The notes under the pieces were generated by a model, which worked only from the letters and a program-made list of their open reading frames with translations, was not told where the DNA came from and ran no database searches. Position numbers and translations under genes: made by a program. A stretch of 61,509 nt of DNA from a virus (taxonomy: Duplodnaviria; Caudoviricetes): the IMG/VR virus record IMGVR_UViG_3300050011_000416, positions 1 to 61,509 of that record; one strand, given 5' to 3'. Shown here one piece after another: positions 6,973 through 53,932 of the stretch; the stretch's first letter is position 1; each line of letters begins with the position of its first letter.

Positions 6973-7047
6973 AGCAGAGTAGTGGAAGGATTACCATTTT
7001 GGCCTCATAAGCCAAAGCACCGAGTTTGAGTCTCGGCTCTGCATCCA
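6973..7047 (+). tRNA. tRNA with CAT anticodon (Met, fMet-like or Ile2)
   Basis: Acceptor stem (A)GCAGAG/CTCTGC(A), anticodon arm TTGGC-CTCATAA-GCCAA, T-arm CCGAG-TTTGAGT-CTCGG, encoded 3' CCA. Confidence 0.85.
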
Positions 7048-7084: not shown

Positions 7085-7093
7085 TTTATTTAA

Positions 7094-7261
7094 GATGGCC
7101 GCGTGGAAAGCGGTGGATACCGTGCCGACTTCGTGGGCGGCATACTGGACCCACTGGAGACATGCACTCGACCGCCCGTAGGTCGGCAGACTTGAGGAAT
7201 GTTCCTTGGGTCACGGGCTCTAAAGATTTATTGCCGAAGTGGGAGTAGCGTCCCACCCATC
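7094..7261 (+). ncRNA. Unidentified tRNA-shaped structured RNA, copy 1
   Basis: GC-rich intergenic tract with closing stem GATGG/CCATC, GCGTGGAAAGC...GGAGACATGCA, and terminal hairpin GTGGG-AGTAGCGT-CCCAC. These motifs are shared with 8224-8455 and 53636-53838. Confidence 0.7.
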
Positions 7262-7277
7262 ATTAATTAGGAGACAT

Positions 7278-8223: not shown

Positions 8224-8455
8224 TTTCTCATGAGGCGTGGAAGCAAGTAGGCGCTAGAAACCCTGGTACGCTGGGGACAATCAGGTAAGCTGGCAAAGGT
8301 GACGATGCCGACCTATTTTAGAGACACGCAACGACCCAAAAAGATCATTCGTAATAGATGTAGAGTTTACGTACCTTTAGGGGGCACACTGGAACTACCT
8401 GGTCAGGACTGGCCATACTTGAGCCGGAGTAGAAGTAGCGATCTACCATGAGAAA
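8224..8455 (+). ncRNA. Unidentified tRNA-shaped structured RNA, copy 2
   Basis: 9-bp closing stem TTTCTCATG/CATGAGAAA, GGCGTGGAAGC...AGAGACACGCA, and terminal hairpin GTAGA-AGTAGCGA-TCTAC. Confidence 0.7.
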
Positions 8456-8457
8456 AT

Positions 8458-8534
8458 AGGCAGTGGGTGCTGTGAGACGTGCAGACTAAATGACTCCTCG
8501 TACGGGATAAATCGGAATAGTCAGCCCACTGTTT
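8458..8534 (+). ncRNA. Candidate companion stem-loop RNA after copy 2
   Basis: AGGCAGTGGG/CCCACTGTTT outer stem and GACTA/TAGTC inner stem; intergenic. Confidence 0.4.
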
Positions 8535-8553
8535 TAATTTTAGGGAAAAATAT

Positions 8554-9380: not shown

Positions 9381-10145
9381 ATGTTATACTTAAACGGTCA
9401 ACTAGTCAATGTCACCATGTTTCCGGACAACACCTCTCAGGTATGGAAACTTCCCCACCATATATCTAATTCGGATTATGCCTGGGTAGATTGGTCTTTC
9501 TCTAATGAAAGTGAAATTCTTCACTTAGCTCAATTAAAAACCCTCCTTGATCATTATGGAGCCCCCACTTCTCTAAGAATTCGATATTTGCCATATGGTC
9601 GTCAAGACAAAGTAGTGTCCAATCATACTACCTTTGCTCTCATAACATTTTCTCAAATTCTGAACAATATGAGTTTCGATAATATTGAAATTATCGATCC
9701 ACATAGCACTATCGCTACCGATCTAATCAAAAATTCAGTCGCTATTCAATCCACGAAGATTTCAGAACTTTGGAATACCGGAGAGTACGATGTGGTTTGC
9801 TACCCAGACAAAGGGGCTCTTTCTAAGTATACTAAGCTATACGATTACCCTTATATGCATGGGGAAAAGGTTCGTGACCAAATTACCGGGAATATTACAA
9901 GCTATCAAATTGTAGGTGATCCTGCTGGCAAAAATGTCTTGATTGTTGATGACATTTGCGATGGTGGAATGACCTTTAGACTTCTGGCCAAAGACCTACT
10001 GGCTGCGGGTGCAAAGAGCGTGGTGCTTTTCGTGACTCACGGAATCTTCTCAAAGGGAACAAGAATTCTCTTTGAATCAGGGATTCAACGGATTTTTACT
10101 CAGGATGGTGAAGTGAGTAATCGTCATGGCACTTTCTATTTATAG
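9381..10145 (+). CDS. PRPP-synthetase-like protein (probable ADPR-PP synthetase, Adps of NARP1)
   Basis: FPD, YLPYGRQDK, DPHS, PDKGA, VLIVDDICDGGMT and VTHGIFS motifs of the Prs family; adjacent to a NAMPT-like gene. Confidence 0.85.
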   Translation: MLYLNGQLVNVTMFPDNTSQVWKLPHHISNSDYAWVDWSFSNESEILHLAQLKTLLDHYGAPTSLRIRYLPYGRQDKVVSNHTTFALITFSQILNNMSFDNIEIIDPHSTIATDLIKNSVAIQSTKISELWNTGEYDVVCYPDKGALSKYTKLYDYPYMHGEKVRDQITGNITSYQIVGDPAGKNVLIVDDICDGGMTFRLLAKDLLAAGAKSVVLFVTHGIFSKGTRILFESGIQRIFTQDGEVSNRHGTFYL

Positions 10146-10156
10146 GAGATTATAAA

Positions 10157-11656
10157 ATGGAAAACTTTAGCGCAATGTTGTTATGTGATTTTTATAAATT
10201 GTCTCATCGTTTGATGTATCCAGGAAAGACGGAGGTTGTCTATTCTACTTGGACTCATCGAGCCAGTCGAATTAAAGAAGTTGATCACGTCGTAGTAGCT
10301 GGTAATCAAAGGTTTATTAAGAAATTCTTAATTGATTTCTTTTACGAAAACTTCTTTTGTAGGAATAAACAAAATGTGGTGGAAGAATATGCCCGTATCG
10401 TCAAGTATACGCTTGGCGTCGCCAATCCAGACACCTCGCATATCGAGGAACTCCACGATCTTGGATATCTTCCTTTGCTCATCAAAGCGGTTCCAGAAGG
10501 AACTCTTTTACCACTCCGAGTCCCTTCGATGACCATTCAGAACACAGATAAAAGGTTTTTCTGGTTAACCAACTATATTGAGACCCTTGCTTCTTGTGAA
10601 CTCTGGCCCACCTATACTGCGGCTACTATCGCCCATGAGTATCGTAAGTTACTAGATGCTGGAGCTATGAAGACTGTAGGTAATACAGATTTTGTGCCTT
10701 TTCAAGGGCATGATTTCAGCATGAGGGGTATGATGGGCATTGAAGCCGCCTCAAATACTGGATTAGGCCATCTTCTTTCTTTTGTTGGTACTGACACTAT
10801 TCCTGCAATTCTAGCTGCAGAATACTACTATAAGGCCAATGTGGAGAAGGAATTGGTCGGTACTTCCATTCCAGCCACCGAGCATAGCATTCAATGTGCT
10901 TATGGGGACGATCTGGCCTATCTTAAGCGCATGATTACCGAAGTGCATCCAACCGGATTTGTATCTGTTGTTTCTGATGGGTATGACTTCTGGGACGTTA
11001 TTGGTCGAGTTCTTCCCCTTCTTAAGGAAGATATTATGGCTCGTAAGGGTGGTCCTGTAGGAGATCGAGTCGTTATTAGACCCGATTCTGGAGACCCAGT
11101 AAAAATCGTTTGTGGTGATCCTGATGCCCCTAAGGGAAGTTTGGAACACAAAGGGGCAGTCGAAGCTCTCTGGAACATCTTTGGTGGTACGTACACCTTT
11201 ATGGACAATCCCACAAAAACTCAGTATAAGGTTCTAGATTCTCATATTGGCCTAATTTATGGGGACGCTATTACCCTTCGTAGGGCTGAAGAGATTATCA
11301 ATCGGTTGGCCGAAAAGGGATTTGCCTCTATCAATGTCGTATTTGGTATTGGATCTTATACTTACCAATACAATACCCGTGATACATTCGGATTTGCTTT
11401 GAAATCAACTGCATGTGTCATTGATGGTGTAGAAAAGCAAATCTTCAAGGATCCTAAGACAGATGATGGGATCAAGAAGTCACAAAAAGGTAAGGTTCAC
11501 GTCTATAGAGCTAATGGCAAGATCACATTCTCAGATGGGCATAGCCTAGCTTCTGAATTATCTGTGGACTTGTTGCAACCCATCTTCAAAGATGGTAAGA
11601 TGCTTAATGTGCAAACCTTTCAACAAATCAGAACCAGATTATTGGAGAGTAAGTGA
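10157..11656 (+). CDS. Nicotinamide phosphoribosyltransferase-like protein (probable Namat of NARP1)
   Basis: DFYKLSH, HDFSMRG, SIPATEHS, SVVSDGYD, VIRPDSGDP, GLIYGDAI, RDTFGFALK and KKSQKG motifs of the NAMPT/NadV family. Confidence 0.9.
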   Translation: MENFSAMLLCDFYKLSHRLMYPGKTEVVYSTWTHRASRIKEVDHVVVAGNQRFIKKFLIDFFYENFFCRNKQNVVEEYARIVKYTLGVANPDTSHIEELHDLGYLPLLIKAVPEGTLLPLRVPSMTIQNTDKRFFWLTNYIETLASCELWPTYTAATIAHEYRKLLDAGAMKTVGNTDFVPFQGHDFSMRGMMGIEAASNTGLGHLLSFVGTDTIPAILAAEYYYKANVEKELVGTSIPATEHSIQCAYGDDLAYLKRMITEVHPTGFVSVVSDGYDFWDVIGRVLPLLKEDIMARKGGPVGDRVVIRPDSGDPVKIVCGDPDAPKGSLEHKGAVEALWNIFGGTYTFMDNPTKTQYKVLDSHIGLIYGDAITLRRAEEIINRLAEKGFASINVVFGIGSYTYQYNTRDTFGFALKSTACVIDGVEKQIFKDPKTDDGIKKSQKGKVHVYRANGKITFSDGHSLASELSVDLLQPIFKDGKMLNVQTFQQIRTRLLESK

Positions 11657-20047: not shown

Positions 20048-21913
20048 TTAGATATTCCATGAAAAACCACCACGCTTGCCGGTTCCTCCGGTAGACACAG
20101 AGACTCCCATAGCTTTGGCAAGTTCTTTCTTCATCATTTCATGTTGTTCCTGAGTATGTTTTTGTTCTTCTGGAATTTGTGTTATACTGGGATCTACCAT
20201 AGTAATATTAGGTCTTTGGGGTCCACTAATAGGAAACATGTTCTGGCCAAGATATCTGAGGCTGTCTGCTATATCTGCTACTCCAGGGGTATCGTCCGGG
20301 GTAGACGTAACCTGACCTTGGCCATCCAAAAGAAACCTGTGTTTCATTATAGCGGTTCTTACTTTTTTAGTACTCTCGGTTTCTAGAATCTTGAGCAGTC
20401 TTTGTCCCGTAGCTGTCATTATTTTACTTCTAACAGAACCTATTCCTCCCATAACGTCCTTAACAAATTTTGGACAAGGGCAACCGTTTCTAACAAATGC
20501 TTTAATATAAGCTGGGGCCGATGTGTCACAATACCATTTCATCACATTATATTTTTCTTTAAAGTTTATTGCTACTGGAACTAAATCTTGTATCTCTAAT
20601 CTTGGACTCGCAAAACAATCGATAATCCAAACCTCTCCATTTGGAATTCTGGCCATTGCTAAAATAACTGCATCATGGGTATGGCCCCAATCTACTCCAC
20701 AATATACGGGAATATTTAAAGATTTAAGGATGGAATAAATAGAGTTGACATCGGTAGTGGATGGTGCTGGATTTCCAATAAGAGCTTCATAGGCCTGTTT
20801 TATAGAAATTAAATTACCATCCTTATTTTTATCTACATATCGAGGATATACCAATCCAGCAGAACCAACTTTCCAGCATAAAAGTTCTGATTCGGCAACA
20901 TCGACATCATTGTCTGCAAATTTTTGAAGCACCGAAACAATTGGTTTATAGAATCCGCCAGTAGCTGTTTGTGGTTTTTGAGAAAGTCTAGTTCTGCACA
21001 CAGGGAGTAGCTTGCAACCAACGCAACCTCCATGAACGTTTGGAATCATATCATACTTAGGCTTCTCAATATCCGGTAGACCGTTAAAATCATCTCCTGT
21101 AAGCTGGACAAGAGGAAGATTCCTAGCAACAAACATATCTTGTTTTGGCAATTCCGGTTTATGCCTTGTAATTGGGCACGCCTCGGTCACATCGAGAATA
21201 TTCCACGAAAGAATGGTGGAATTTGTTTCTTCAGCTTTATCTATGGCCTCTTGCATATTTCCGAAGGCGTACTTACGTGTTGAAAGATAAACCCTAATAC
21301 CGTAAAATCCTCTACTAAATCCTGTAATATTTTTACCTTGTTTGATAGCAGTAGGATCAGCTAAATCCAATTCATCCAAAAAAAGAAAATTAGCATGTAA
21401 GGAATTCATTCCTTTTGTAGTACATATTAGAATTTTAATAAATGGGGTTTTGCCTTCAGGAGTTTTATACTTAATAGTTCTCTTATTTTGGGTCATATTT
21501 TCCCATTTACTTATCTCAAGCAATGGGGCTATTTTTGTTATGAAATCTCCTATGTAACCTATGGCGACTGCAGACTGCTCCTCTGTAGCAGCGGCATGTG
21601 CAACTGTTCTAGAAAAATGTAACATAATCAAAAGCTCTAAAATGGCAACACTAACCGTTTTCATCCCTTCTCTGCAAGACATAAGTATAAAATTTGGCGT
21701 AACATCACCAGAATTATTCTTTGCTGCTTCGTAAATTTGCCAAATCGAGTCCAATGGAGAAGAGGAACTGCCAGGATCTGTAATTTCTAATGGAAGTTCA
21801 AGATCCAAAAAAGATAGTGCCCAGTCCTTTATGTCTTCGGCAGATTGCAGATGGTCGAACATGAGTCCTGCATACTCTTTTTTCTGATCATCTGTTAAGT
21901 TTTTAAAATCCAT
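20048..21913 (-). CDS. terL: Terminase large subunit
   Basis: Deviant Walker A MSCREGMKT, Walker B FLFLDELD, nuclease motifs GVDWG and DIADSLRY; upstream of the portal. Confidence 0.8.
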   Translation of the reverse strand: MDFKNLTDDQKKEYAGLMFDHLQSAEDIKDWALSFLDLELPLEITDPGSSSSPLDSIWQIYEAAKNNSGDVTPNFILMSCREGMKTVSVAILELLIMLHFSRTVAHAAATEEQSAVAIGYIGDFITKIAPLLEISKWENMTQNKRTIKYKTPEGKTPFIKILICTTKGMNSLHANFLFLDELDLADPTAIKQGKNITGFSRGFYGIRVYLSTRKYAFGNMQEAIDKAEETNSTILSWNILDVTEACPITRHKPELPKQDMFVARNLPLVQLTGDDFNGLPDIEKPKYDMIPNVHGGCVGCKLLPVCRTRLSQKPQTATGGFYKPIVSVLQKFADNDVDVAESELLCWKVGSAGLVYPRYVDKNKDGNLISIKQAYEALIGNPAPSTTDVNSIYSILKSLNIPVYCGVDWGHTHDAVILAMARIPNGEVWIIDCFASPRLEIQDLVPVAINFKEKYNVMKWYCDTSAPAYIKAFVRNGCPCPKFVKDVMGGIGSVRSKIMTATGQRLLKILETESTKKVRTAIMKHRFLLDGQGQVTSTPDDTPGVADIADSLRYLGQNMFPISGPQRPNITMVDPSITQIPEEQKHTQEQHEMMKKELAKAMGVSVSTGGTGKRGGFSWNI

Positions 21914-22868
21914 GTGAAGTTCCTAAGAAATTGAGGCACCTACTAATGCAAATTTCTTTATCTTTAATCCAATCTTCTTCTTTAATATGCAGAATTTGAA
22001 TGCCTTTTGAGGCAAACCAATCATCTTTGATCTTGTGGTAATTTAAGATGTCTTCATCTGACCATTCAGATTTATGAGAATCTTTTCTCATAAATTCAAA
22101 CGAATGATATCGAGTGCCATCAAATTCTATCCCTTTGTTTAATTCTTGAACAAAGATGTCTATTTCAAATCCTTTAATGTGCGGCCTATCGATGATAGAA
22201 ACTTTCATGTCCCTCATCTTCTTACTCTCTGGATAAATATTTTTTATTATACATAAAAGTTCGTTTTCTGCAATAGAAGAAGATCTAGATAGTTTCATAT
22301 GCTTACAAATTTGATCTATGACCCCTCTTCTAGAAGCCACTAAACTGGCTGAACTATTTTTTTGAAATTCTCCACGCGTTTTATATTGCAATGCTTCTTT
22401 TTGAAGTGTTTCTGGAGTCCAATGAATATAATTCTGCTCCATGTGAGAACAAAATTGATCAAAAAACCCCCTTCTTCTGATCAAATTATATGCGGATTCA
22501 TTACTGTATCTTAGTTCTTTCAGTGTTTTGTATTTTAAGGCTTCCAGTTTAAGCATTTCATCTGTCCAATAAATACATCCATCTACCATATGACTACAAA
22601 CAGAATCAATTATATTCATTCTATGTGCTGCCCGATAAGCTCCACAACTACCTTTTAGAAATTCATTTCTAGTTTTGTATTTTAGGGCTTCTAGTTCTAC
22701 TATATTTTTGGGCCAACTATTTTGAGCCTTGTGCATATGAGTACAAATTTGATCTAAGATATCTTTTGAAATAGCCGATCTATATGCACCACGGCTTCCT
22801 TTTTGAAAACTAAATCGTGTTTCATATTTTAAAGCTTCTGCTTGCAATAAATTTAATGTCCATTTCAT
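21903..22868 (-). CDS. Putative free-standing homing endonuclease (four ~49-aa repeats plus PD-(D/E)xK domain)
   Basis: Repeats W...EAL[KQ]Y[KE]T..., C-terminal FEIDIFV...GIEFDGTRYH...KGIQILHIKE. Start placed at ATG 22868, 4 nt after CAATCTTA. Confidence 0.65.
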   Translation of the reverse strand: MKWTLNLLQAEALKYETRFSFQKGSRGAYRSAISKDILDQICTHMHKAQNSWPKNIVELEALKYKTRNEFLKGSCGAYRAAHRMNIIDSVCSHMVDGCIYWTDEMLKLEALKYKTLKELRYSNESAYNLIRRRGFFDQFCSHMEQNYIHWTPETLQKEALQYKTRGEFQKNSSASLVASRRGVIDQICKHMKLSRSSSIAENELLCIIKNIYPESKKMRDMKVSIIDRPHIKGFEIDIFVQELNKGIEFDGTRYHSFEFMRKDSHKSEWSDEDILNYHKIKDDWFASKGIQILHIKEEDWIKDKEICISRCLNFLGTSHGF

Positions 22869-22907
22869 ATTATAAGATTGCCTTATTAACCTATAAAAGT
22901 CAAGCAC

Positions 22908-24701
22908 TTACTTCCTATTTAATGCTGGATTCTGATAGGCGTCGCTGTTTTCTGAGACTTTAGCCCATTCTTCATCCAATTTGGCCTCACTTCTTTCATA
23001 TGCAGCATCTCTAGGATGACAGACGATGCCTCCCAAAGTACCCAATACACCAGCAATTTCAACACTATTTCTCAATGCTTCACTCACAGCTTTTGTGGCA
23101 TCAAAAATTCCCAAGTCTTCGGCTTTACCGAATAGTTGGTTCTCAATGTCATAGACCTCACCAGGACTTTCAATCAGTCTAGTTAGAACCTCACTTGCCT
23201 CTTCCTCATGATATCCAGCATTATCCAGTAACCTGTTAAAAAGGGCCACCAATGATGGCATCAAGACTTCCCTGGCAGGATCTCCCTTTTCCAATTCTTC
23301 AGAGATTTTAAGAGTCATGTCTAGAACAACTCGACCCCCACCTGGCAAAACTCCGTGAGTAATGCTACTTCTGATAGAGCATACGGCATCTTCCGCGCGA
23401 TCTGCCCTTTCCTTGATGTCTGCGGGACTGGATCCAATAATAGTCAACTTAGCAATTCCAGAAGTAATTTTGGCAATTCTTTCTTCTAACCAACTAGACT
23501 CTGCTTTTGATTCCGCTCTCTTAAGTTGCTTCCTTAGTTCGTCCGCCCTATATTCAATATTGACCGCATCAGGGCTTCCTCCCAAAGTACTCCTGAAACG
23601 AGTAGCTTCAAAATTTTCCATCCCGGTTCCTAGATCTTCGATTGTAGCCGAATTTATTTGGTTCTTAAGTCCAAACACTTTGGCTCCGGTAAAGGCTGCC
23701 AGATCCGTCATCCAATGAGATTGGGCATTCATGAACTGTGCCATAGGAGCTTTAATGGGCACGATTCTTAGAGTTCCAGTTTGCTCAAAATTGAAAGATA
23801 GGGTGGAAATGACCGTCTCAGAGAAACCATTGGCTACAAGAATGATATTTTTAAGTTCTTTAGCAACTTCAGCTTTTTGACTTTCTGGAGCCTGCGTTAT
23901 CCTATCCTCGATGGCATTAAATAGGGGAGTTAGGGAAATAAGATCCATTAGGGCTCCATCGTATAGGATGAACTTTGGATTCTCTAGATAGCACCTTTGA
24001 TTTCCTTGATCGTTAATATAGGAAGGAAAATACTTGCCAGAACTCTCTTCTAGGCCTATAGGGATGGGATAGCCCTCTATCCTCTCCACCTTGTAGCCAC
24101 TTGGCCCTGGAAGCTCTCTAATAGTGACATGTGAGGCCTCGCCATAGCCAACTTCTTCAAAACACTGAAGAACTGCTTCAGCCAAAGCCTTCTCCCCATT
24201 TGCACTGATCGTAGCTACATTTAGGAGAAGATTTTTAGACTCTTCGGTAACCTTAATGCTTCGCTCTGCAATATATGGCAGAAGAGTTTCTTCCATGACC
24301 TTCTTGATACGTCTTACGGTCTTTTGGGGAGATTCTTTTGGATTGTTCTCACAAAAATCAAAGATATTACGGATGAGTTCATTTGCCAGTACAGCGGTAG
24401 TAGTCGTACCATCGCCACACTCATTAGCGGTCCTAAGAGAGCAGGAACGGGCTACCTCAATGATACTGTGCTTATATGGGTTCTGGTGGGCCATTGCCAT
24501 GAATACGGATATTCCGTCCTTACTGATTCTATCTGGTAGGCCCACATGGTCTGATTCAAGAAGCATCACTTTACCACCTGGTCCAAGGGTGCCTCCAACA
24601 AGACGACTAATATCCCCCATAGTTTCTAGAACAACATCTCTTATCTTATTGTTATCACTCAGATATATTTTGGGGGCCGTTTTAGCTTTTCTATAAGACA
24701 T
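22908..24701 (-). CDS. groEL: Phage-encoded GroEL-like chaperonin
   Basis: TLGPGG, SKDGISV, GDGTTT, ATISANG, RAEDA and PGGG motifs; AAAGGAG SD before ATG 24701. Confidence 0.9.
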   Translation of the reverse strand: MSYRKAKTAPKIYLSDNNKIRDVVLETMGDISRLVGGTLGPGGKVMLLESDHVGLPDRISKDGISVFMAMAHQNPYKHSIIEVARSCSLRTANECGDGTTTTAVLANELIRNIFDFCENNPKESPQKTVRRIKKVMEETLLPYIAERSIKVTEESKNLLLNVATISANGEKALAEAVLQCFEEVGYGEASHVTIRELPGPSGYKVERIEGYPIPIGLEESSGKYFPSYINDQGNQRCYLENPKFILYDGALMDLISLTPLFNAIEDRITQAPESQKAEVAKELKNIILVANGFSETVISTLSFNFEQTGTLRIVPIKAPMAQFMNAQSHWMTDLAAFTGAKVFGLKNQINSATIEDLGTGMENFEATRFRSTLGGSPDAVNIEYRADELRKQLKRAESKAESSWLEERIAKITSGIAKLTIIGSSPADIKERADRAEDAVCSIRSSITHGVLPGGGRVVLDMTLKISEELEKGDPAREVLMPSLVALFNRLLDNAGYHEEEASEVLTRLIESPGEVYDIENQLFGKAEDLGIFDATKAVSEALRNSVEIAGVLGTLGGIVCHPRDAAYERSEAKLDEEWAKVSENSDAYQNPALNRK

Positions 24702-24751
24702 AATCTCTCCTTTAGGAATATTCAAGTAACTTATATCATAGAAAAATAAGG

Positions 24752-38907: not shown

Positions 38908-39648
38908 ATGTCTGAAAATACTGATAAGAGAAATGCTACACAAAAGATTGAAGATCTTGAAAAGGTAGTAACTGTACTATATCAAGCAGTTAGTCAAATG
39001 AAACCCGCTCTTGAGAATCTAATGAGGTCTCAGGGAGATATGGCTTTGGTGAAGGACGCTCTTAAACTTCTGAATAAGAAGACTGAGGCCATCATTCAAG
39101 TTGCTGCTCCTGAAACAGGTATTACTGTTTCTGCTGTTTCTACCCTTGTGGTCAAAATGAATGTTGATGATCTGACTGCTCAGGTTGCTGGATATGTTGC
39201 AAATGGCCATCTTGTTGCCGGTGACGAGGTTGCCGACAACAGTTATCTGGTATGTGAGGAATCAAATGCCGATGGCACTTTGGCCAATCCTCGTATTCAG
39301 TTCCGTCTTGACTCTCAAGACAAGGCTACCGCAGATGCTCTGAGAGGTAAAAAGGCTGGAGACGTGGTTTCATTTGGTGAAAATAGGTTTAATGCCAAGA
39401 TTTTGGAGGTCTATACATTAGCGGAACCTAAGGCTCCAGAGGCCGCTACTGCACCTCAAGAGGCTGCTCCTGCCGCTTTGTCTGACGTATCTGCACCACA
39501 ATCTCCTACAGAGGATGCTCCAGCCGCTCCTCCAGCTAATCAAGTTGCCGATGCTACTCCAGCCTTGGATCCTCTTCCAGCCGAGACCTCAGTTGTAGAA
39601 TTCGTGCCATCCGATAATTCTACGATGACTACGGCTTCTAGTCGATAA
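38908..39648 (+). CDS. Hypothetical protein (coiled coil, FKBP/GreA-C-like segment, Ala/Pro tail)
   Basis: AGGAG SD; ALRGKKAGDVVSF...KILEVY segment. Confidence 0.55.
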   Translation: MSENTDKRNATQKIEDLEKVVTVLYQAVSQMKPALENLMRSQGDMALVKDALKLLNKKTEAIIQVAAPETGITVSAVSTLVVKMNVDDLTAQVAGYVANGHLVAGDEVADNSYLVCEESNADGTLANPRIQFRLDSQDKATADALRGKKAGDVVSFGENRFNAKILEVYTLAEPKAPEAATAPQEAAPAALSDVSAPQSPTEDAPAAPPANQVADATPALDPLPAETSVVEFVPSDNSTMTTASSR

Positions 39649-44045: not shown

Positions 44046-46163
44046 GTGAATATAAGCATTCATACACACCCTGAATCCAGGCTCAGTGGTTCTCCCCTTC
44101 CTGCTATGATTAAGCGTGCAGTAGACTTGGGTCGTACCCATTTTTCCTATACTGACTTGGGCCACATCTCTAGTTGTTTGAAGACTTACGGTCTTGCCAA
44201 GAAGTCAGGACTCAAATTTGCTCCAGGTATTGAATTCTATTTCAAAGATCCCAAATGTCCATTCGTTACTGGAACTCAGGCAGATCGCTGTAGGTACTTT
44301 AATGCAGCACTTTTTTGTACTAATCAGCTCTCTTTTCAGGAACTCATAAGAACGGTATCTAAAGACGATATGCCCAAAATTGAGGTCCAAGAGGAAGAGC
44401 AATCCTTATGGTCCTGGGATGAACTGGAACGTCTAAGTAAGTTCGATACCCTCCTAGTTCTTGGGGGTGTCCACGATATGGTTGGGAAAGTCCTTCTAGC
44501 TGATGGCCCAGAATTGGCAGAAAAGGTATTACTCAGGGCTAAAGAGTTATTTGGTCCTAGATTATCCATAGCTTTGATCTGTGAACCATGGGATAAGAAA
44601 TACGCTACGGTTATCAAAATCAACTACACAGATGGTACCTATGACTCTTTATTGGCTTCTGACACGGTTACAACCGATAGGGCTAGAAAAATAAAGGTCT
44701 CAGATCTAATTAAAAGAGGTGGTCATACAGAGATTCAATCCAAAATTGTAGGTAATACTTTTTTTGAAGTCTATAAGAAAATAGATAACATTACGGAACA
44801 AAAAGGTTTTCTTCCATTGCCAGGTGGCGACATTACCCTTAGAATCAATAAATTTTTGCTCGAAATGTCCAAAAAATATGGAATTACGGCACTAGTATCT
44901 GACTACGCCTTTTATGCTTCAAAAGAAGATCACGCCGCTCAAACCATGGTTCTTGGCGGTAGTAAGCTAAAATCCGACCTTCATATGAAAACCGATGAAG
45001 AGTTCTATAAGTATCTTTATACCGTAATGAATCTGAGTCAGGACGAAGCCGCTCAACTTATATACAATAATAATGAGTGGGCTAAGAATTTTGATAACTT
45101 TGAATTGAAATACGAATGGCATTTGGCAGATAGTGGTGGAAATGCCGCACAGCAATGCATGGAGATTATTAAGAAAAAGGGACTAATGAAGTGGGATAAT
45201 CCTCTATGGACTGCTCGCCTTAGAGAAGAGTTTTTGGTCATTGCGAAAAACAAGGTCAAGGATCTATCCCCATATTTCTTGCCCATTCACGATGTCATTA
45301 ACTATTATGAGGAAAATGGCAGGCTTACTGGCCCAGGACGAGGAAGTAGTGCTGGAAGCCTAATTGCCTATCTAATGGGTATTACCAAAGTTAACCCATT
45401 TACTTACGACCTTAGTTTTAACCGCTTCTACTCTACAGATCGTATCGAAGCCCTTAAATTGGCCGATATCGATTCTGACTTGGAGTCTAGAGAATTATTG
45501 GTTGGAAGTGATGGTAAAAGCGGATATCTTTATGGTAGGTGGGGCAATAAGGCTGCCCAAATCAGTACCAGGGGCAAGATCAGGCTAAAGAGCGCAATCA
45601 AGGACACTAACCGATATTTTAAGGGATCTGTTGAGAAAGAAATCGAACAAATCTGTAAAAAGCTTCCAGATGCCGGTCAAGGCATTACAGATGAACAATT
45701 TTTGTTTGGTTTTGAGGATGATGATGGCAACCATATTGATGGGTTGATCGAAACTTCCGAAGTCTTACAGAAATACATAGCTGAACGTCCAAAAGAATGG
45801 GCAATCGTACAACAGGCTCTAGGGATTACTAGATCTTTTAGCCGACATGCCTGCTTCCCTTCTAGTGAGGCAATCTTAACTATAGAAGATGAAAAGATAG
45901 TAAAAAGAGGAATTATAGAATGTCACAACAAAATGATTCTAACAGGAACGGGGAGAAAGGCAAATGCGAGACTTCTCCATCAAGGACGGAAGAAGATTTA
46001 CAAGTACACACTCTCGGACGGGACAAGTATAAAGAGCACCTCAGATCACGAATTCTTAACACTAGAAAAAGGCTGGCAGAAAATAAATTTGATCCTGAAG
46101 GAAAACCTTACATTTTTACCTCTATCGATGACTGTAAAAGATTTGCTAAAAATAAAGGACTGA
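44046..46163 (+). CDS. dnaE: DNA polymerase III alpha, N-terminal part (602 aa) fused to split intein N-fragment
   Basis: PHP motifs (HTH..S, TDLG, PGIE), GPGRGSSAGSL and ADIDSD catalytic motifs; ends in an intein N-fragment. Confidence 0.92.
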   Translation: MNISIHTHPESRLSGSPLPAMIKRAVDLGRTHFSYTDLGHISSCLKTYGLAKKSGLKFAPGIEFYFKDPKCPFVTGTQADRCRYFNAALFCTNQLSFQELIRTVSKDDMPKIEVQEEEQSLWSWDELERLSKFDTLLVLGGVHDMVGKVLLADGPELAEKVLLRAKELFGPRLSIALICEPWDKKYATVIKINYTDGTYDSLLASDTVTTDRARKIKVSDLIKRGGHTEIQSKIVGNTFFEVYKKIDNITEQKGFLPLPGGDITLRINKFLLEMSKKYGITALVSDYAFYASKEDHAAQTMVLGGSKLKSDLHMKTDEEFYKYLYTVMNLSQDEAAQLIYNNNEWAKNFDNFELKYEWHLADSGGNAAQQCMEIIKKKGLMKWDNPLWTARLREEFLVIAKNKVKDLSPYFLPIHDVINYYEENGRLTGPGRGSSAGSLIAYLMGITKVNPFTYDLSFNRFYSTDRIEALKLADIDSDLESRELLVGSDGKSGYLYGRWGNKAAQISTRGKIRLKSAIKDTNRYFKGSVEKEIEQICKKLPDAGQGITDEQFLFGFEDDDGNHIDGLIETSEVLQKYIAERPKEWAIVQQALGITRSFSRHACFPSSEAILTIEDEKIVKRGIIECHNKMILTGTGRKANARLLHQGRKKIYKYTLSDGTSIKSTSDHEFLTLEKGWQKINLILKENLTFLPLSMTVKDLLKIKD
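45852..46160 (+). mobile_element. Split intein N-fragment (IntN, 103 aa)
   Basis: CFPSSEAILT (block A) and IYKYTLSDGTSIKSTSDHEFLTLEKGW (block B TxxH), followed by a stop. Confidence 0.88.
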
Positions 46164-47011
46164 AATGTTTAGATAACAAATACGTTAGATGCGATTTTCC
46201 TATGTCTTGGGAATGCAGCAATGGACATATCTTTAAAAGACGCATAACCGATATGGTTAGAGGAACCGCAAAATGCCCTAAATGTGGAGATAGGGGTCGA
46301 GCAGAGCATTCTAGAAAAACATGGGAAGACATAAACAAAGAACTTAAAAGACGAGGACTCATTCCTCTATTTGTTCACGAAGACTATAAGAGCGTGGAAT
46401 CTGTCTTAAGGTTCAAACACACTAAATGCGGTAATGAATTCGAATGTAGGTACAGACAGGCCTTTAAACTTAAAGATGGAAGCGCGTGTCCAAAATGTAA
46501 TCCACTGTGCAAAAGGGGGACTTTGGAAGAATGCGAAAAATTGGCCCAAAAGAAAGGCGGAATTTGCGTAAAATTTTCTGGTAATGTTAAGGATATTTCT
46601 ACTTGGAAATGTAATGCAGAGCACGTTTGGCAAGCCCCACTATTCTTGATGCGCAAGGGAAGTTGGTGTATGATCTGCGAATACGATTCCAGAATAAAAT
46701 ATAAATCTGAAGAAGACTATAAGTTAGCGGGTCGCTTGGCCAGCTATAAACGAAGAGATAAACAAAAAAATAGAGGATTCGATATAGATTTTAACGATAT
46801 GCTTAAGCTCAAAGATTCCAAATGTTTTTACTGTTCAGATGAGGCTAAGGGGTACGATAGAAAAGATAATAGTTTGGGACACTTAAAAACAAATGTGGTT
46901 CCGTGTTGTTTTAGATGCAATAAGATAAAAATGGACAAAATTCCCTTTGACTTAATGATAGAAATAGGTAAAACTATAAATAAGTATTATGCTAAAAATA
47001 ACAAAAGTTGA
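45920..47011 (+). CDS. Free-standing homing endonuclease (zinc-ribbon repeats plus HNH-like domain) between split dnaE halves
   Basis: Three C..GH/CG...CPKC-type repeats; CFYC...DRKDNSLGH...NVVPCCFRCN..K; GAGGA SD and CAATCTTA upstream. Confidence 0.8.
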   Translation: MSQQNDSNRNGEKGKCETSPSRTEEDLQVHTLGRDKYKEHLRSRILNTRKRLAENKFDPEGKPYIFTSIDDCKRFAKNKGLKCLDNKYVRCDFPMSWECSNGHIFKRRITDMVRGTAKCPKCGDRGRAEHSRKTWEDINKELKRRGLIPLFVHEDYKSVESVLRFKHTKCGNEFECRYRQAFKLKDGSACPKCNPLCKRGTLEECEKLAQKKGGICVKFSGNVKDISTWKCNAEHVWQAPLFLMRKGSWCMICEYDSRIKYKSEEDYKLAGRLASYKRRDKQKNRGFDIDFNDMLKLKDSKCFYCSDEAKGYDRKDNSLGHLKTNVVPCCFRCNKIKMDKIPFDLMIEIGKTINKYYAKNNKS

Positions 47012-47102
47012 AGAAATAGGATATGAAGACGTTTACGATCTTTTTGTAGACAATGAAGACCATTCTTTTATATTGGGAAATTCAGGTGTAATTGCGCATA
47101 AT
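46989..47102 (+). mobile_element. Split intein C-fragment (IntC, 38 aa)
   Basis: MLKITKVEEIGYEDVYDLFVDNEDHSFILGNSGVIAHN followed by Cys+1 (blocks F and G). Confidence 0.9.
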
Positions 47103-48899
47103 TGCGCATTTGTCATTGCAGATATGCCCATTTCTGATCTGGTTCCTCTTAAAGAAGGCCATATTACCCAATATGAAGCTGGGGCTTGTGAAGAAGCTGG
47201 TTTGGTTAAATACGACTTTTTGGTTATCAATCAATTGAAAGATATCAGAGTTTGCTTGGACTTGATCAATAAGAAGAATGGCGATGTCAACAGAGTTGGT
47301 TATTTTAACCATAAAGGCCTAAGAACCTACATTTGGGACTTACCAGAAGATCCAGAGGCCTACAAAAGTGTTTGGAATGGAGAGACAGAATCCTGCTTTC
47401 AAATCAATACCACCACCATGACCCCTTTTGTGAAATCCGTCATGCCCCAAAATATGGAAGATCTTTCCATCATTCTATCCCTTGTTCGCCCTGGTCCATT
47501 GGACTATGTTATCGAGGAAACCGGCAGAAATATGGCTAGGGAGTACGTACATCGTCGTGATGGCAATTCATATGAAGATATTGAAATCCTAAAGGAATTG
47601 ATTCCACAGACACATTCGGTTCTTGTTTATCAAGAGCAGGTTACTAAGATCGCAAAGGAACTAGCTGGATTCTCCGGCAGTGCTGCTGAAAATCTCAGAG
47701 AAGCTATTGGTAAAAAGAAGCGCTCTACGATTTTAAAGATTAAGCCTGAGTTTATTAACGGATGTAAGTCTTCAGGCAAGGTTACCGAGGAAGAGGCCCA
47801 ACAGCTATGGGAACGAATCGTGACCTTTGGTAGATATGCGTTTAATAAATCCCACGGAATCTCATATGCCCACATTACCTACGCTTGCATGTTCCTTAAG
47901 CATTACTACAACTTGGAGTTTTGGGCAGCCATTCTCACAAATGCCAAGGAAAAAGAGATCTCAGGCAAGCTCTGGCCTCACGTAAGAGACTTGGTAGCTC
48001 CTCCAGATATCAACCTATCTTCCGATGAAATGGAGATTGACTACGCCAATCACAAGATTCGTGCCAAGTTAGGTGTCATCAGGGGAATGGGTGCTGCTAC
48101 AATCGATCCTATTGTGGCTGGAAGGCCCTACAAAGACATCCAAGACTTCGTCAATAGGGATGTGGCCGGACCAGCTCTTAGCCGTAAGCTAACCCACGTA
48201 GGAGTCTTAGACTCCCTATATCCTCCCAAGTTAGGTTTATTGGAAAAACTTCAATTGTTTGAGAATGCTCTAGAGATCAAGAAACACGATAAAAAAGTAG
48301 AAAAGGCAAGATTAGAGGGTAAAACCATAAAAGCCTCTTTGCCCAAGTTGGGTGAGATTCCAGAAGAATATCTCAGCATTGAAAAAGATCCTATGAAGAA
48401 CGCTGCTATAAAGAAATCGATTCTTCCTAGCCTTTTAGTTGGTTTGAGAGATCTCGGCATGAAGTACTCCAAATGTTTGGAATATAAAGACATTCCTTCT
48501 AAAATGATGGTATCTGCTGAAGGGCGAAGGGGTGTAGAGTTTGATACTAGGTACAAGCCAACCGATAAAGAGAGGATTTTCTTGATTAGCGGGGAGATGC
48601 TCCAACAATTGGACGAGCAAACTGCTGAAGAGGTATCGGAAGATAAGTATGCGGTAGTTACTGCTTTCATTGTTGAAACTAAGGTATTTGACTATAAGAA
48701 AAATACAAAGCAAGCATTGAAGGTTGTAATGGACGTAGATGGGGTAACTAGTGAGAAAGTTCTATGGCCAGACTACTTCACCCAAGAATTGACTTATCCC
48801 AAGGAGCTTAAGAAGGGCAACATTTGTACAATTTTCCTAAAGAAACGTGCAAATAAGGCAGATGTTTGTTCAATTACAGAAATTGTAATAGAGGCTTGA
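46989..48899 (+). CDS. dnaE: Split intein C-fragment fused to DNA polymerase III alpha C-terminal part
   Basis: After the IntC: GLVKYDFL, SLVRPGP, VYQEQV, FGRYAFNKSH, PDINLS and an OB-fold C-terminus. Confidence 0.92.
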   Translation: MLKITKVEEIGYEDVYDLFVDNEDHSFILGNSGVIAHNCAFVIADMPISDLVPLKEGHITQYEAGACEEAGLVKYDFLVINQLKDIRVCLDLINKKNGDVNRVGYFNHKGLRTYIWDLPEDPEAYKSVWNGETESCFQINTTTMTPFVKSVMPQNMEDLSIILSLVRPGPLDYVIEETGRNMAREYVHRRDGNSYEDIEILKELIPQTHSVLVYQEQVTKIAKELAGFSGSAAENLREAIGKKKRSTILKIKPEFINGCKSSGKVTEEEAQQLWERIVTFGRYAFNKSHGISYAHITYACMFLKHYYNLEFWAAILTNAKEKEISGKLWPHVRDLVAPPDINLSSDEMEIDYANHKIRAKLGVIRGMGAATIDPIVAGRPYKDIQDFVNRDVAGPALSRKLTHVGVLDSLYPPKLGLLEKLQLFENALEIKKHDKKVEKARLEGKTIKASLPKLGEIPEEYLSIEKDPMKNAAIKKSILPSLLVGLRDLGMKYSKCLEYKDIPSKMMVSAEGRRGVEFDTRYKPTDKERIFLISGEMLQQLDEQTAEEVSEDKYAVVTAFIVETKVFDYKKNTKQALKVVMDVDGVTSEKVLWPDYFTQELTYPKELKKGNICTIFLKKRANKADVCSITEIVIEA

Positions 48900-53635: not shown

Positions 53636-53838
53636 TTGGCGGCGGCGTGGAAAGCTGTGGGAGTAGCTCAGAGGAGAAAGCGGGGTCGAGAGATCTGCTA
53701 TGTGGGTTCGAGTCCCACCACCACTGGAGACACGCATCGGAAGGTGGAATGAGTAGGTACTGCAACGTCGGGCGTAAGTCAGGCGTTAATGCGTCATCTT
53801 TATAGTCCTACTAGTAGGAGTAGCGTCCTACCCGCCAA
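53636..53838 (+). ncRNA. Unidentified tRNA-shaped structured RNA, copy 3 (contains nested tRNA-like domain 53657-53724)
   Basis: Closing stem TTGGCGG/CCGCCAA, GGCGTGGAAAGC...GGAGACACGCA, and terminal hairpin GTAGG-AGTAGCGT-CCTAC. Confidence 0.72.
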
Positions 53839-53842
53839 TAAA

Positions 53843-53916
53843 TTTAACGGGTGCTCATCCTAGGTATTTGGGCCACAGTCAAAAGAATCGGATGAAGTGT
53901 CTGATTGCCCGTTAAA
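53843..53916 (+). ncRNA. Candidate companion stem-loop RNA after copy 3
   Basis: TTTAACGGGT/GCCCGTTAAA outer stem and TCATCC/GGATGA inner stem. Confidence 0.4.
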
Positions 53917-53932
53917 ATTAAGAAAGGTTCCC

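Follow-up and report, generated by a model that had tools for sequence, protein, structure and literature searches.

The locus and its gene context

The window, by which we mean the whole 61,509-nt stretch of DNA analyzed here, is a 61.5-kb fragment of an uncultured virus record (completeness 37% by CheckV) with a G+C content of 40%. Its genes include those for a major head protein, portal, terminase, GroEL, NAMPT with PRPP synthetase, a split DNA polymerase, a UvsX-like recombinase, and a primase/helicase. Three copies of a structured element that we term the scaffold RNA lie among these genes, so that the label "copy 3" used in a first-pass annotation of this DNA is borne out, and the third copy encloses a 68-base tRNA-like cloverleaf that has no anticodon loop (Table 1). 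Copy 3 begins 4 nt past the uvsX stop codon, and no promoter-like site was found in the approximately 30 nt upstream of it. Copies 2 and 3 are each followed by an extra hairpin before the next gene (8454-8540 and 53846-53920, respectively); the one after copy 2 resembles an intrinsic terminator, with CAGTGGG...CCCACTG followed by the T-run TTTTAATTTT.

Window DNA is also found in contigs of several peat metagenome runs. Among four further peat runs, from different studies, three have contigs identical over part or all of the arm that carries the cloverleaf, with zero differences among them, and the contig of the fourth stops short. This identity across runs establishes that the arm DNA is real and says nothing on expression. 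Several other features of the window deserve mention in their own right. The DNA polymerase is encoded by two ORFs (44046-46163 and 46989-48899) with an HNH endonuclease ORF (45920-47011) between them, either a split gene or an intein/intron-type interruption. Between the terminase large subunit gene and a GroEL-like gene is an HNH/homing-endonuclease ORF (21903-24725 and 22296-22843) that contains internally repeated units of about 147 nt. PRPP synthetase stands beside nicotinamide phosphoribosyltransferase in a NAD salvage module (9381-11656), and the scaffold RNA of a related contig (L023) is followed by a NadR-like gene.

Table 1. Features of the scaffold RNA, its nested tRNA-like module and related elements in the window
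Feature	Position	Strand	Basis or remark
Scaffold RNA copy 3, whole element, 203 nt	53636-53838	+	Parse; family covariation
P0 closing helix, 5' strand TTGGCGG (pairs with 53832-53838)	53636-53642	+	Parse; all 7 P0 pairs change on both sides among 30 members
P1a 5' strand GCGTG and conserved loop strand GAAAGCT	53645-53656	+	Columns invariant in the alignment
Nested tRNA-like cloverleaf without anticodon loop, 68 bases	53657-53724	+	Rfam tRNA model, 21 bits over 53657-53725; manual numbering; ARAGORN at -ps80 only
D-arm analogue GCTC-AGAGGAGA-AAGC, 3 bp and a C/A mismatch	53666-53681	+	Rfam tRNA alignment; weak in the energy model
5-bp stem with GAGA tetraloop cap, anticodon-arm position	53683-53696	+	Pair C31-G36 probability 0.98, G27-U40 0.24
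T-arm GTGGG-TTCGAGT-CCCAC	53702-53718	+	Rfam tRNA alignment; motif enrichment
Conserved loop strand TGGAGA and P1a 3' strand CACGC	53725-53735	+	Alignment of members
Variable middle domain, 78 nt	53736-53813	+	Parse; 30-116 nt in armed members
Conserved 3' hairpin GTAGGA-GTAGCG-TCCTAC, contiguous with the P0 3' strand	53814-53831	+	Parse; covariation
P0 closing helix, 3' strand CCGCCAA	53832-53838	+	Parse; covariation
Ordinary tRNA-Met (CAT) gene	6974-7043	+	ARAGORN; Rfam tRNA 44.2 bits; contrast to the tRNA-like module
Scaffold RNA copy 1, 44-nt plain hairpin arm, no tRNA features	7092-7263	+	Parse; 48 nt downstream of tRNA-Met
Scaffold RNA copy 2, 75-nt branched arm, GGAAGC variant	8226-8453	+	Parse; 7 nt after a TTGACT-16-TATAGT promoter-like site

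A conserved scaffold RNA with an optional arm

Pattern scans of IMG/VR with two conserved core words returned 41 loci, giving 45 elements together with the copies in the window; all family counts reported here rest on fixed-word patterns and are thus lower bounds, biased towards the consensus. Identical geometry could be parsed in 43 of the 45 armed elements: a closing helix of 7 bp (P0), then two linker nucleotides (CG in 37 of 43), the helix P1a (GCGUG/CACGC), the loop strands GAAAGCU and UGGAGA, a further helix P1b (mostly GUGG/CCAC) that bears the variable arm, a middle domain of 30-116 nt, and a 3' hairpin of 5-6 bp with a GU(A/C)GCG loop that directly abuts the P0 3' strand. The arms themselves are hypervariable, ranging from 28 to 89 nt with unrelated folds. 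Copy 3 has every one of the family features, from P0, linker, and P1a to the loop strands and the GU(A/C)GCG hairpin.

This scaffold is a real structured RNA. In a MAFFT alignment of 30 members, 97.3% of the cells in the four helices are paired, and 14 of 21 pairs have changes on both sides; none of 500 shuffles reached the observed values, partners slid out of register were at most 45% paired, and the G-U pairs fit the given strand only. The invariance of P1a in the same alignment is partly due to our search patterns, which fix the P1a words.

The commonest form of the element has no arm at all. An armless core, GCGUGGAAAGCAGACACGC, in which P1a is simply a hairpin with the loop GAAAGCAGA, accounts for 110 of 122 elements among the matches listed in IMG/VR, and 103 of the 122 among the matches listed parse with P0 and the 3' hairpin, which is why we regard the arm as an insertion into the P1a loop. 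Armless cores with P0 and a GUAGCG hairpin (L306-L425) occur at a minimum of 120 IMG/VR loci, with total lengths of 97-323 nt and a median of 147 nt. The element also occurs in bacterial genomes and MAGs, where 10 of 11 loci show the hairpin and closing helix by eye and where the carriers include Phenylobacterium, Brevundimonas, Thalassospira, and Cellvibrionaceae records. Among cultured phages it is present in the Pseudomonas syringae phages Orimi01 and Orisa01-03. The Orimi01 element is armless (L305 1304-1543, corresponding to about 39145-39384 on the minus strand of PP179326.1) and heads a leftward early operon (ERF, endonuclease, methyltransferase) that diverges from a Cro-like gene; it overlaps an annotated hypothetical-protein CDS, Orimi01_00061, and this CDS call may be spurious. 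Upstream of this element, at a distance of about 60 nt, is a fragment (GGTTCGAATCCC) that resembles a tRNA 3' end. Each of the five complete genomes examined has one strict scaffold copy.

The genes downstream of armed members are unrelated to one another, encoding GroEL, PNKP, UvsX, a Cas4-like nuclease, a NadR-like protein, an MT-A70 methyltransferase, ParB, an aminotransferase, and small proteins of no assigned function. A riboswitch was therefore dropped as the leading idea for the scaffold. Readings as a retron, omega-RNA, pRNA, or RNase P RNA were likewise set aside, there being neither a matching gene nor a model match for any of them. Eleven armless loci were scanned together with their neighboring ORFs, and 10 of these have annotated neighbors. 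Four of them have recombination genes (Erf/SSB/Gam, exonuclease VIII, RecE-like, Sak4-like) on the same strand and no more than about 2 kb away, and an integrase or sigma factor adjoins three others. Several members sit 7-14 nt after a -10-like box, and about 20 of 43 have a Shine-Dalgarno site and start codon 9-32 nt downstream. In our reading the scaffold is an RNA of early transcripts, placed in their leaders or between cistrons, and its partner may be RNA polymerase, the ribosome, an RNase, or a phage protein.

Rfam 15 holds no family that matches any form of the scaffold, whether the window is searched at gathering score or the three copies and the armless Orimi01 element are searched at E<=10; the latter search returned sub-threshold matches of tRNA type only. 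An open full-text search for the core words of the scaffold also retrieved nothing relevant, and the element may stand unnamed among the 10,006 candidate viral RNAs of PMC10690425. The scaffold family is common in phages and prophages and apparently undescribed.

Anatomy and folding of the tRNA-like module

In tRNA numbering, the module at 53657-53724 has a 7-nt 5' acceptor strand (G1-G7) followed by U8 and A9. Its D-stem is formed by G10-C25, C11-G24, and U12-A23, with C13 and A22 mismatched, and encloses an 8-nt D-loop, AGAGGAGA, that includes A14, the GG pair, and A21; G26 follows. The position of the anticodon arm is taken by a 5-bp stem (G27-U40 to C31-G36) with a 4-nt GAGA cap instead of the canonical 7-nt anticodon loop. 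A 5-nt variable loop, GCUAU, leads to the T-stem GUGGG/CCCAC with its T-loop UUCGAGU, and CACCAC completes the 3' side. The module thus has the canonical GTTCRA T-loop, the A14/GG/A21 set of the D-loop, U8, and the 5-nt variable loop, and all of its stem and loop lengths are canonical save the GAGA cap. Five of the seven acceptor layers are paired, four of them as GUGG/CCAC and the fifth as G7-C63. As GUGG/CCAC is the conserved scaffold helix P1b, the "acceptor" continues into the scaffold without a CCA end: in place of a free 7-bp acceptor with discriminator and CCA, both strands of the module run into the conserved loop of the scaffold.

The first-pass annotation had described these same letters and this parse, and they are present in the window as it gave them. 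It had pointed to a canonical T-arm and the start of a D-arm, and the T-arm consensus, the D-loop A14/GG/A21 and the canonical spacing can all be read from the sequence; its statements that a GNRA tetraloop replaces the anticodon loop and that the acceptor runs on with no free CCA agree with the GAGA-capped 5-bp stem and with the identity of P1b set out above. It had further expected a tRNA finder to return a pseudogene or undetermined call. ARAGORN reported no tRNA here at its default setting or with -ps, and produced a forced "tRNA-Ser(aga)" at 53655-53727 under the relaxed -ps80 setting, in keeping with that expectation.

The Rfam tRNA model (RF00005) aligns end to end (positions 1-71 of 71) to 53657-53725 with 21.0 bits, below its gathering score of 29 bits, at E=0.1 for a search of 701 nt on both strands with 4227 families. 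Nearest-neighbor energies favor another fold, with the cloverleaf at -15.6 kcal/mol versus -21.3 kcal/mol for the minimum free energy (MFE) structure (5.7 kcal/mol worse). The MFE fold of the arm lengthens the GAGA hairpin and loses the D-stem, and in the ensemble the three D-stem pairs tested have probabilities of 0.001 each and the T-arm one of about 0.3. The cloverleaf is confirmed as sequence anatomy; that it forms in vivo we infer.

Searching for relatives of the arm gave little. The region had no blastn match among 50,697 phage records, an 83-nt query of the arm region gave only short T-arm matches to phage tRNA genes (E>=3) in the phage records, and no close homologues of the tRNA-like arm of the window were found in these searches. 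The T-arm word is nonetheless far from random in the family: GGTTCRANTCC occurs in three of the 45 arms (2437 nt) versus 0.014 expected from the same loci, which is a more than 100-fold enrichment, and leaving out the arm of the window itself still gives two versus about 0.014 expected (Poisson P ~9e-5). The other 42 of the 45 arms in this unbiased sample do not have the T-arm consensus.

tRNA-like arms in other members of the family

tRNA-like arms are rare, being found in six elements (the window and five other loci), four of which have covariance-model support, versus at least 150 parsed members. Within the unbiased set the T-arm word is carried by copy 3 of the window, L019, and L033; the remaining three loci, L060, L073, and L096, came from targeted scans outside that set. 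L019 shares the order of the window, a 5-bp stem with a GAAA cap standing in for the anticodon arm and a GAGA hairpin preceding the T-arm, and scores 20.6 bits with the tRNA-Sec model. L060 has two tandem tRNA-like units, the first of which scores 28.7 bits with the tRNA-Sec model and has its anticodon arm cut to 7 nt. The P1 region of L060, on the minus strand, is 173 nt long, and its T-arms read AGAGG-TTCGATT-CCTCT and AATGG-TTCAATT-CCATT. L033 is permuted, with a T-arm, a UUCG-capped 7-bp acceptor, the dinucleotide UA, and a D-arm in that order, and its link to the scaffold is the anticodon stem. The P1 domain of L033 as a whole gives a full-length alignment to the Rfam YrlA model with 23.2 bits. 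In L096 and L073 a T-arm is accompanied, by eye, by a capped acceptor and a D-like loop, with no support from a model. The tRNA-like arms therefore come in two connectivities, one via the acceptor stem, as in the window, and the other via the anticodon stem with the acceptor capped. Every one of the covariance-model scores lies below its curated cut-off (21 versus 29 for the window, 23.2 versus 69 for L033), and YrlA-model matches of the size seen in L033 occur in 13 of 14 control genomes as well, so these scores are to be taken as "tRNA-shaped" and not as family membership.

Additional scans extended this set no further. Searching metagenomes for the 5' core with a T-loop yielded no element with both family cores among the 117 loci listed, many of which are tRNA-Sec genes, and a viral scan for permuted arms found no family members among 68 new loci. 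A single syntenic relative was found, L179, in a 162-kb relative whose neighboring protein is 66% identical. At the orthologous site downstream of uvsX (1292-1417) it has the identical P0 strands TTGGCGG/CCGCCAA and a similar hairpin with a GGUAACGG loop; its interior is unrelated and shows neither the P1 core nor a tRNA-like arm. Set beside the window, L179 has kept the frame and swapped the inside. The first-pass annotation's own test, whether homologues carry the tRNA-like features, thus finds support in a minority of unrelated members (L019, L060, L033, L096, L073); most members do not have them, and neither does the syntenic L179.

Comparison with known systems

The closest parallel to the module is YrlA, a tRNA-like Y RNA of bacteria and mycobacteriophages. 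Chen et al. 2014 (PMC4201824) describe a GNCGAAN0-1G motif at its 5' side, stem-loops designated T, acceptor-like, D, and V, a tRNA-like domain that is modified by DusA and TruB, and a gene that lies no more than about 4 kb from that for Ro60 and on its strand. They also describe cleavage by RNase P when a 7-bp acceptor is provided, this acceptor being the major determinant, and in Mycobacterium smegmatis an RNase P cut followed by CCA addition. The module resembles YrlA in that a tRNA-shaped domain that is not decoded, with a T-arm, a D-arm, an acceptor-like stem, and a hairpin of GAGA type ahead of the T-arm, lies inside a stem of a modular noncoding RNA, and L033 has the exact YrlA order of T-arm, capped acceptor, and D-arm. 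The two differ in how the domain is attached, since the module of the window is joined via its acceptor end whereas YrlA is joined via its anticodon stem, and the RNA that hosts the module has in addition the P0 helix, the middle domain, and the 3' hairpin that is conserved in the family, where the arm is optional.

Membership in the YrlA family is a separate matter. The P1 word of our family, GUGGAAAG, departs from GNCGAAN0-1G at one position, with G for C in every member examined, and members with this word were found by patterns that fix it. The YrlA model (RF02553, cut-off 69 bits) has no match in the window. No TROVE (Ro60/Rsr) gene is present in the window, which is a 37% complete record, or in any of five phage records (two of them at least 90% complete), and four of the five bacterial genomes with the element have none. 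The sole TROVE-bearing genome has YrlA-like matches beside its TROVE genes and none at the coordinates of its scaffold loci, L163 and L164 (contig numbering not cross-checked). From the absence of TROVE and the G in place of C in the motif it follows that membership fails, and "works like YrlA" stands as the best analogy. In a Cellvibrionaceae MAG, arrays of YrlA-like permuted mimics (L180, G010:C17:33434-36563, and L174-L178; 25-42 bits, below the cut-off) lie directly upstream of three TROVE/Ro60 genes.

GOLLD offers a second comparison. According to Kretsch et al. (bioRxiv 10.1101/2024.12.08.627333), it is a phage structured RNA of more than 800 nt that sometimes has a covalently linked tRNA in a variable linker, and GOLLD and ROOL are often found near tRNA genes. 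Copy 1 in the window, with its tRNA-Met 48 nt away, is similar in this last respect. The linked tRNAs of GOLLD appear to be ordinary and decodable, unlike the module here, which has no anticodon loop and sits in a scaffold of 100-230 nt. The Rfam models of GOLLD and ROOL have no match in the whole window at gathering score or in the three copies at E<=10.

In tmRNA, an acceptor/T-arm stack closes a large RNA with an interior that is not tRNA-like. The geometry of the scaffold itself is tRNA-like in a comparable way: the 7-bp helix P0 leads through a 2-nt linker into a first hairpin, which a long insert separates from the 5-bp hairpin that stacks on P0. The likeness to tmRNA lies in the 7-bp P0, the linker, and the hairpin that abuts the P0 3' strand. 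It differs in having no CCA end, no T-loop consensus in the 3' hairpin, and no tag reading frame; tRNA consensus is absent from the scaffold's own loops, and ARAGORN finds no tmRNA in the window. Leader elements found in lambdoid early operons, such as the lambda nut sites and the HK022 put RNAs, would resemble the scaffold in position only: the armless element of Orimi01 heads an early operon, several members come shortly after a promoter-like -10 box, and we claim no likeness of sequence or structure. Copy 3 differs in following uvsX closely and having no nearby promoter-like site.

What the module may be doing

The module at 53657-53724 is probably a tRNA look-alike and not a decoder. To the first-pass proposal, a captured tRNA used as a structural module, we can say that the arm is tRNA-shaped, non-decodable, and nested in a larger RNA, as the 21-bit tRNA match, the GAGA cap, and the missing free 3' end attest; that it functions as a tRNA mimic is plausible, and we grade it at that level because the syntenic relative does not have the arm and the D-stem is thermodynamically weak. 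Capture from a tRNA gene, binding of T-loop readers or RNase P, and protection against tRNA-targeting defenses are conjectures. The reading that we favor, to which we give about an even chance, is that the arm is a tRNA mimic serving as an optional functional or structural plug-in. The mimic would be an L-shaped module, tRNA-derived or tRNA-convergent, made up of a D-arm, a T-arm, an acceptor-like stem, and a GAGA-capped stem for the anticodon arm, and set into the optional hypervariable arm. The scaffold (P0, P1 with its GAAAGC/AGA loop, and the GU(A/C)GCG hairpin) would be the conserved working part, located at the 5' end of early-region transcripts or close to it, and the arm a plug-in position that happens in the window to be occupied by a non-decoding tRNA mimic. 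Having no free 3' end and no anticodon, the mimic would be neither aminoacylated nor read, and would instead show a tRNA elbow (D-loop/T-loop) to whatever reads tRNA shape, in an arrangement like that of YrlA, whose domain is modified by tRNA enzymes. Recognition by tRNA-binding factors, like the role assigned to the scaffold, is what we would expect if this reading is right. A bolder form of it, which we think unlikely, makes the scaffold a general display chassis of phage early transcripts with exchangeable decoy or recruiting modules in its optional arm, among which the tRNA-shaped arms, having arisen at least twice and in two connectivities, would act as anticodon-less decoys or tethers for readers of tRNA shape such as modifying enzymes, RNase P, elbow-binding factors, and tRNA-targeting defense nucleases.

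The alternative that we take most seriously, a possible one though on balance doubtful, is that the module is a neutral leftover, in which case part of a tRNA gene, or a tRNA copy in decay, would have recombined into a tolerant arm and persisted, unrecognized, as a stable and harmless fold. Much in the family speaks for this, as the arm is dispensable (110 of 122 armless among the matches listed), hypervariable, and missing from the syntenic relative L179, the C/A mismatch of the D-stem and the two unpaired acceptor layers are what a decaying copy would have, and tRNA material lies near other elements, namely the tRNA-Met 48 nt upstream of copy 1 and the tRNA 3' fragment upstream of the Orimi01 element. 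Decay would not readily leave the T-arm and the positions of tertiary contact (U8, A14, GG, A21, T-loop) intact with the anticodon loop specifically swapped for a tetraloop, however, and random capture does not lead one to expect that an elbow kept and an anticodon lost would recur in L019, L060, and L033, in different sequences and in two connectivities. The consensus T-arm and an acceptor-plus-T stack of about the right length could make the cloverleaf a processing signal, a substrate for RNase P and 3' tRNA processing with cuts at 53656/53657 and after 53724, for which M. smegmatis YrlA (PMC4201824) offers a precedent. We find this quite improbable: only five of the seven acceptor layers pair, against a 7-bp determinant for RNase P as described in that source, and four of the five paired layers are the scaffold's own helix, which is present in members without tRNA features.

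It is less probable still that the element is a true Y RNA in which the P1 helix with GUGGAAAG would be the binding site for Ro60/Rsr and the arm an effector module. The alignment of the L033 P1 domain to Rfam YrlA and the single-position departure from GNCGAAN0-1G would fit, but the TROVE gene is absent from the window, from five of five phage records, and from four of five bacterial genomes, every member examined has G for the conserved C of the motif, and most members have no arm. Least credible to us is coincidence, an ordinary four-way junction that happens to hold tRNA-like words. Scores below curated thresholds and an energy model that prefers another fold are what such a junction would give, yet a chance origin sits poorly with a match at E=0.1 over 4227 families that runs end to end along the tRNA model with canonical lengths save the GAGA cap, and with a T-arm word that is more than 100-fold enriched in the arms.

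tmRNA and the Ro60-bound Y RNA YrlA are known cases of tRNA mimicry by noncoding RNAs. Here a tRNA body of that kind, devoid of an anticodon, is carried as an optional plug-in by another RNA chassis, one that is itself very common in phages and apparently undescribed. The family is a large RNA group that heads early operons of phages and is represented in culture by Orimi01, and its armless, armed, and tRNA-armed members amount to a natural experiment on the contribution of a tRNA elbow to a phage RNA. Were the arm to recruit or distract host factors that recognize tRNA, the principle of the Y RNAs would extend beyond Ro60; were the scaffold a display chassis in the sense given above, it would be a Ro60-independent phage counterpart of the Y RNAs.

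One further member is of note for its position. In a complete 164,830-bp IMG/VR genome with direct terminal repeats, the element (L031 146-364) lies about 150 nt from the left end, and it may be the first sequence transcribed after injection.
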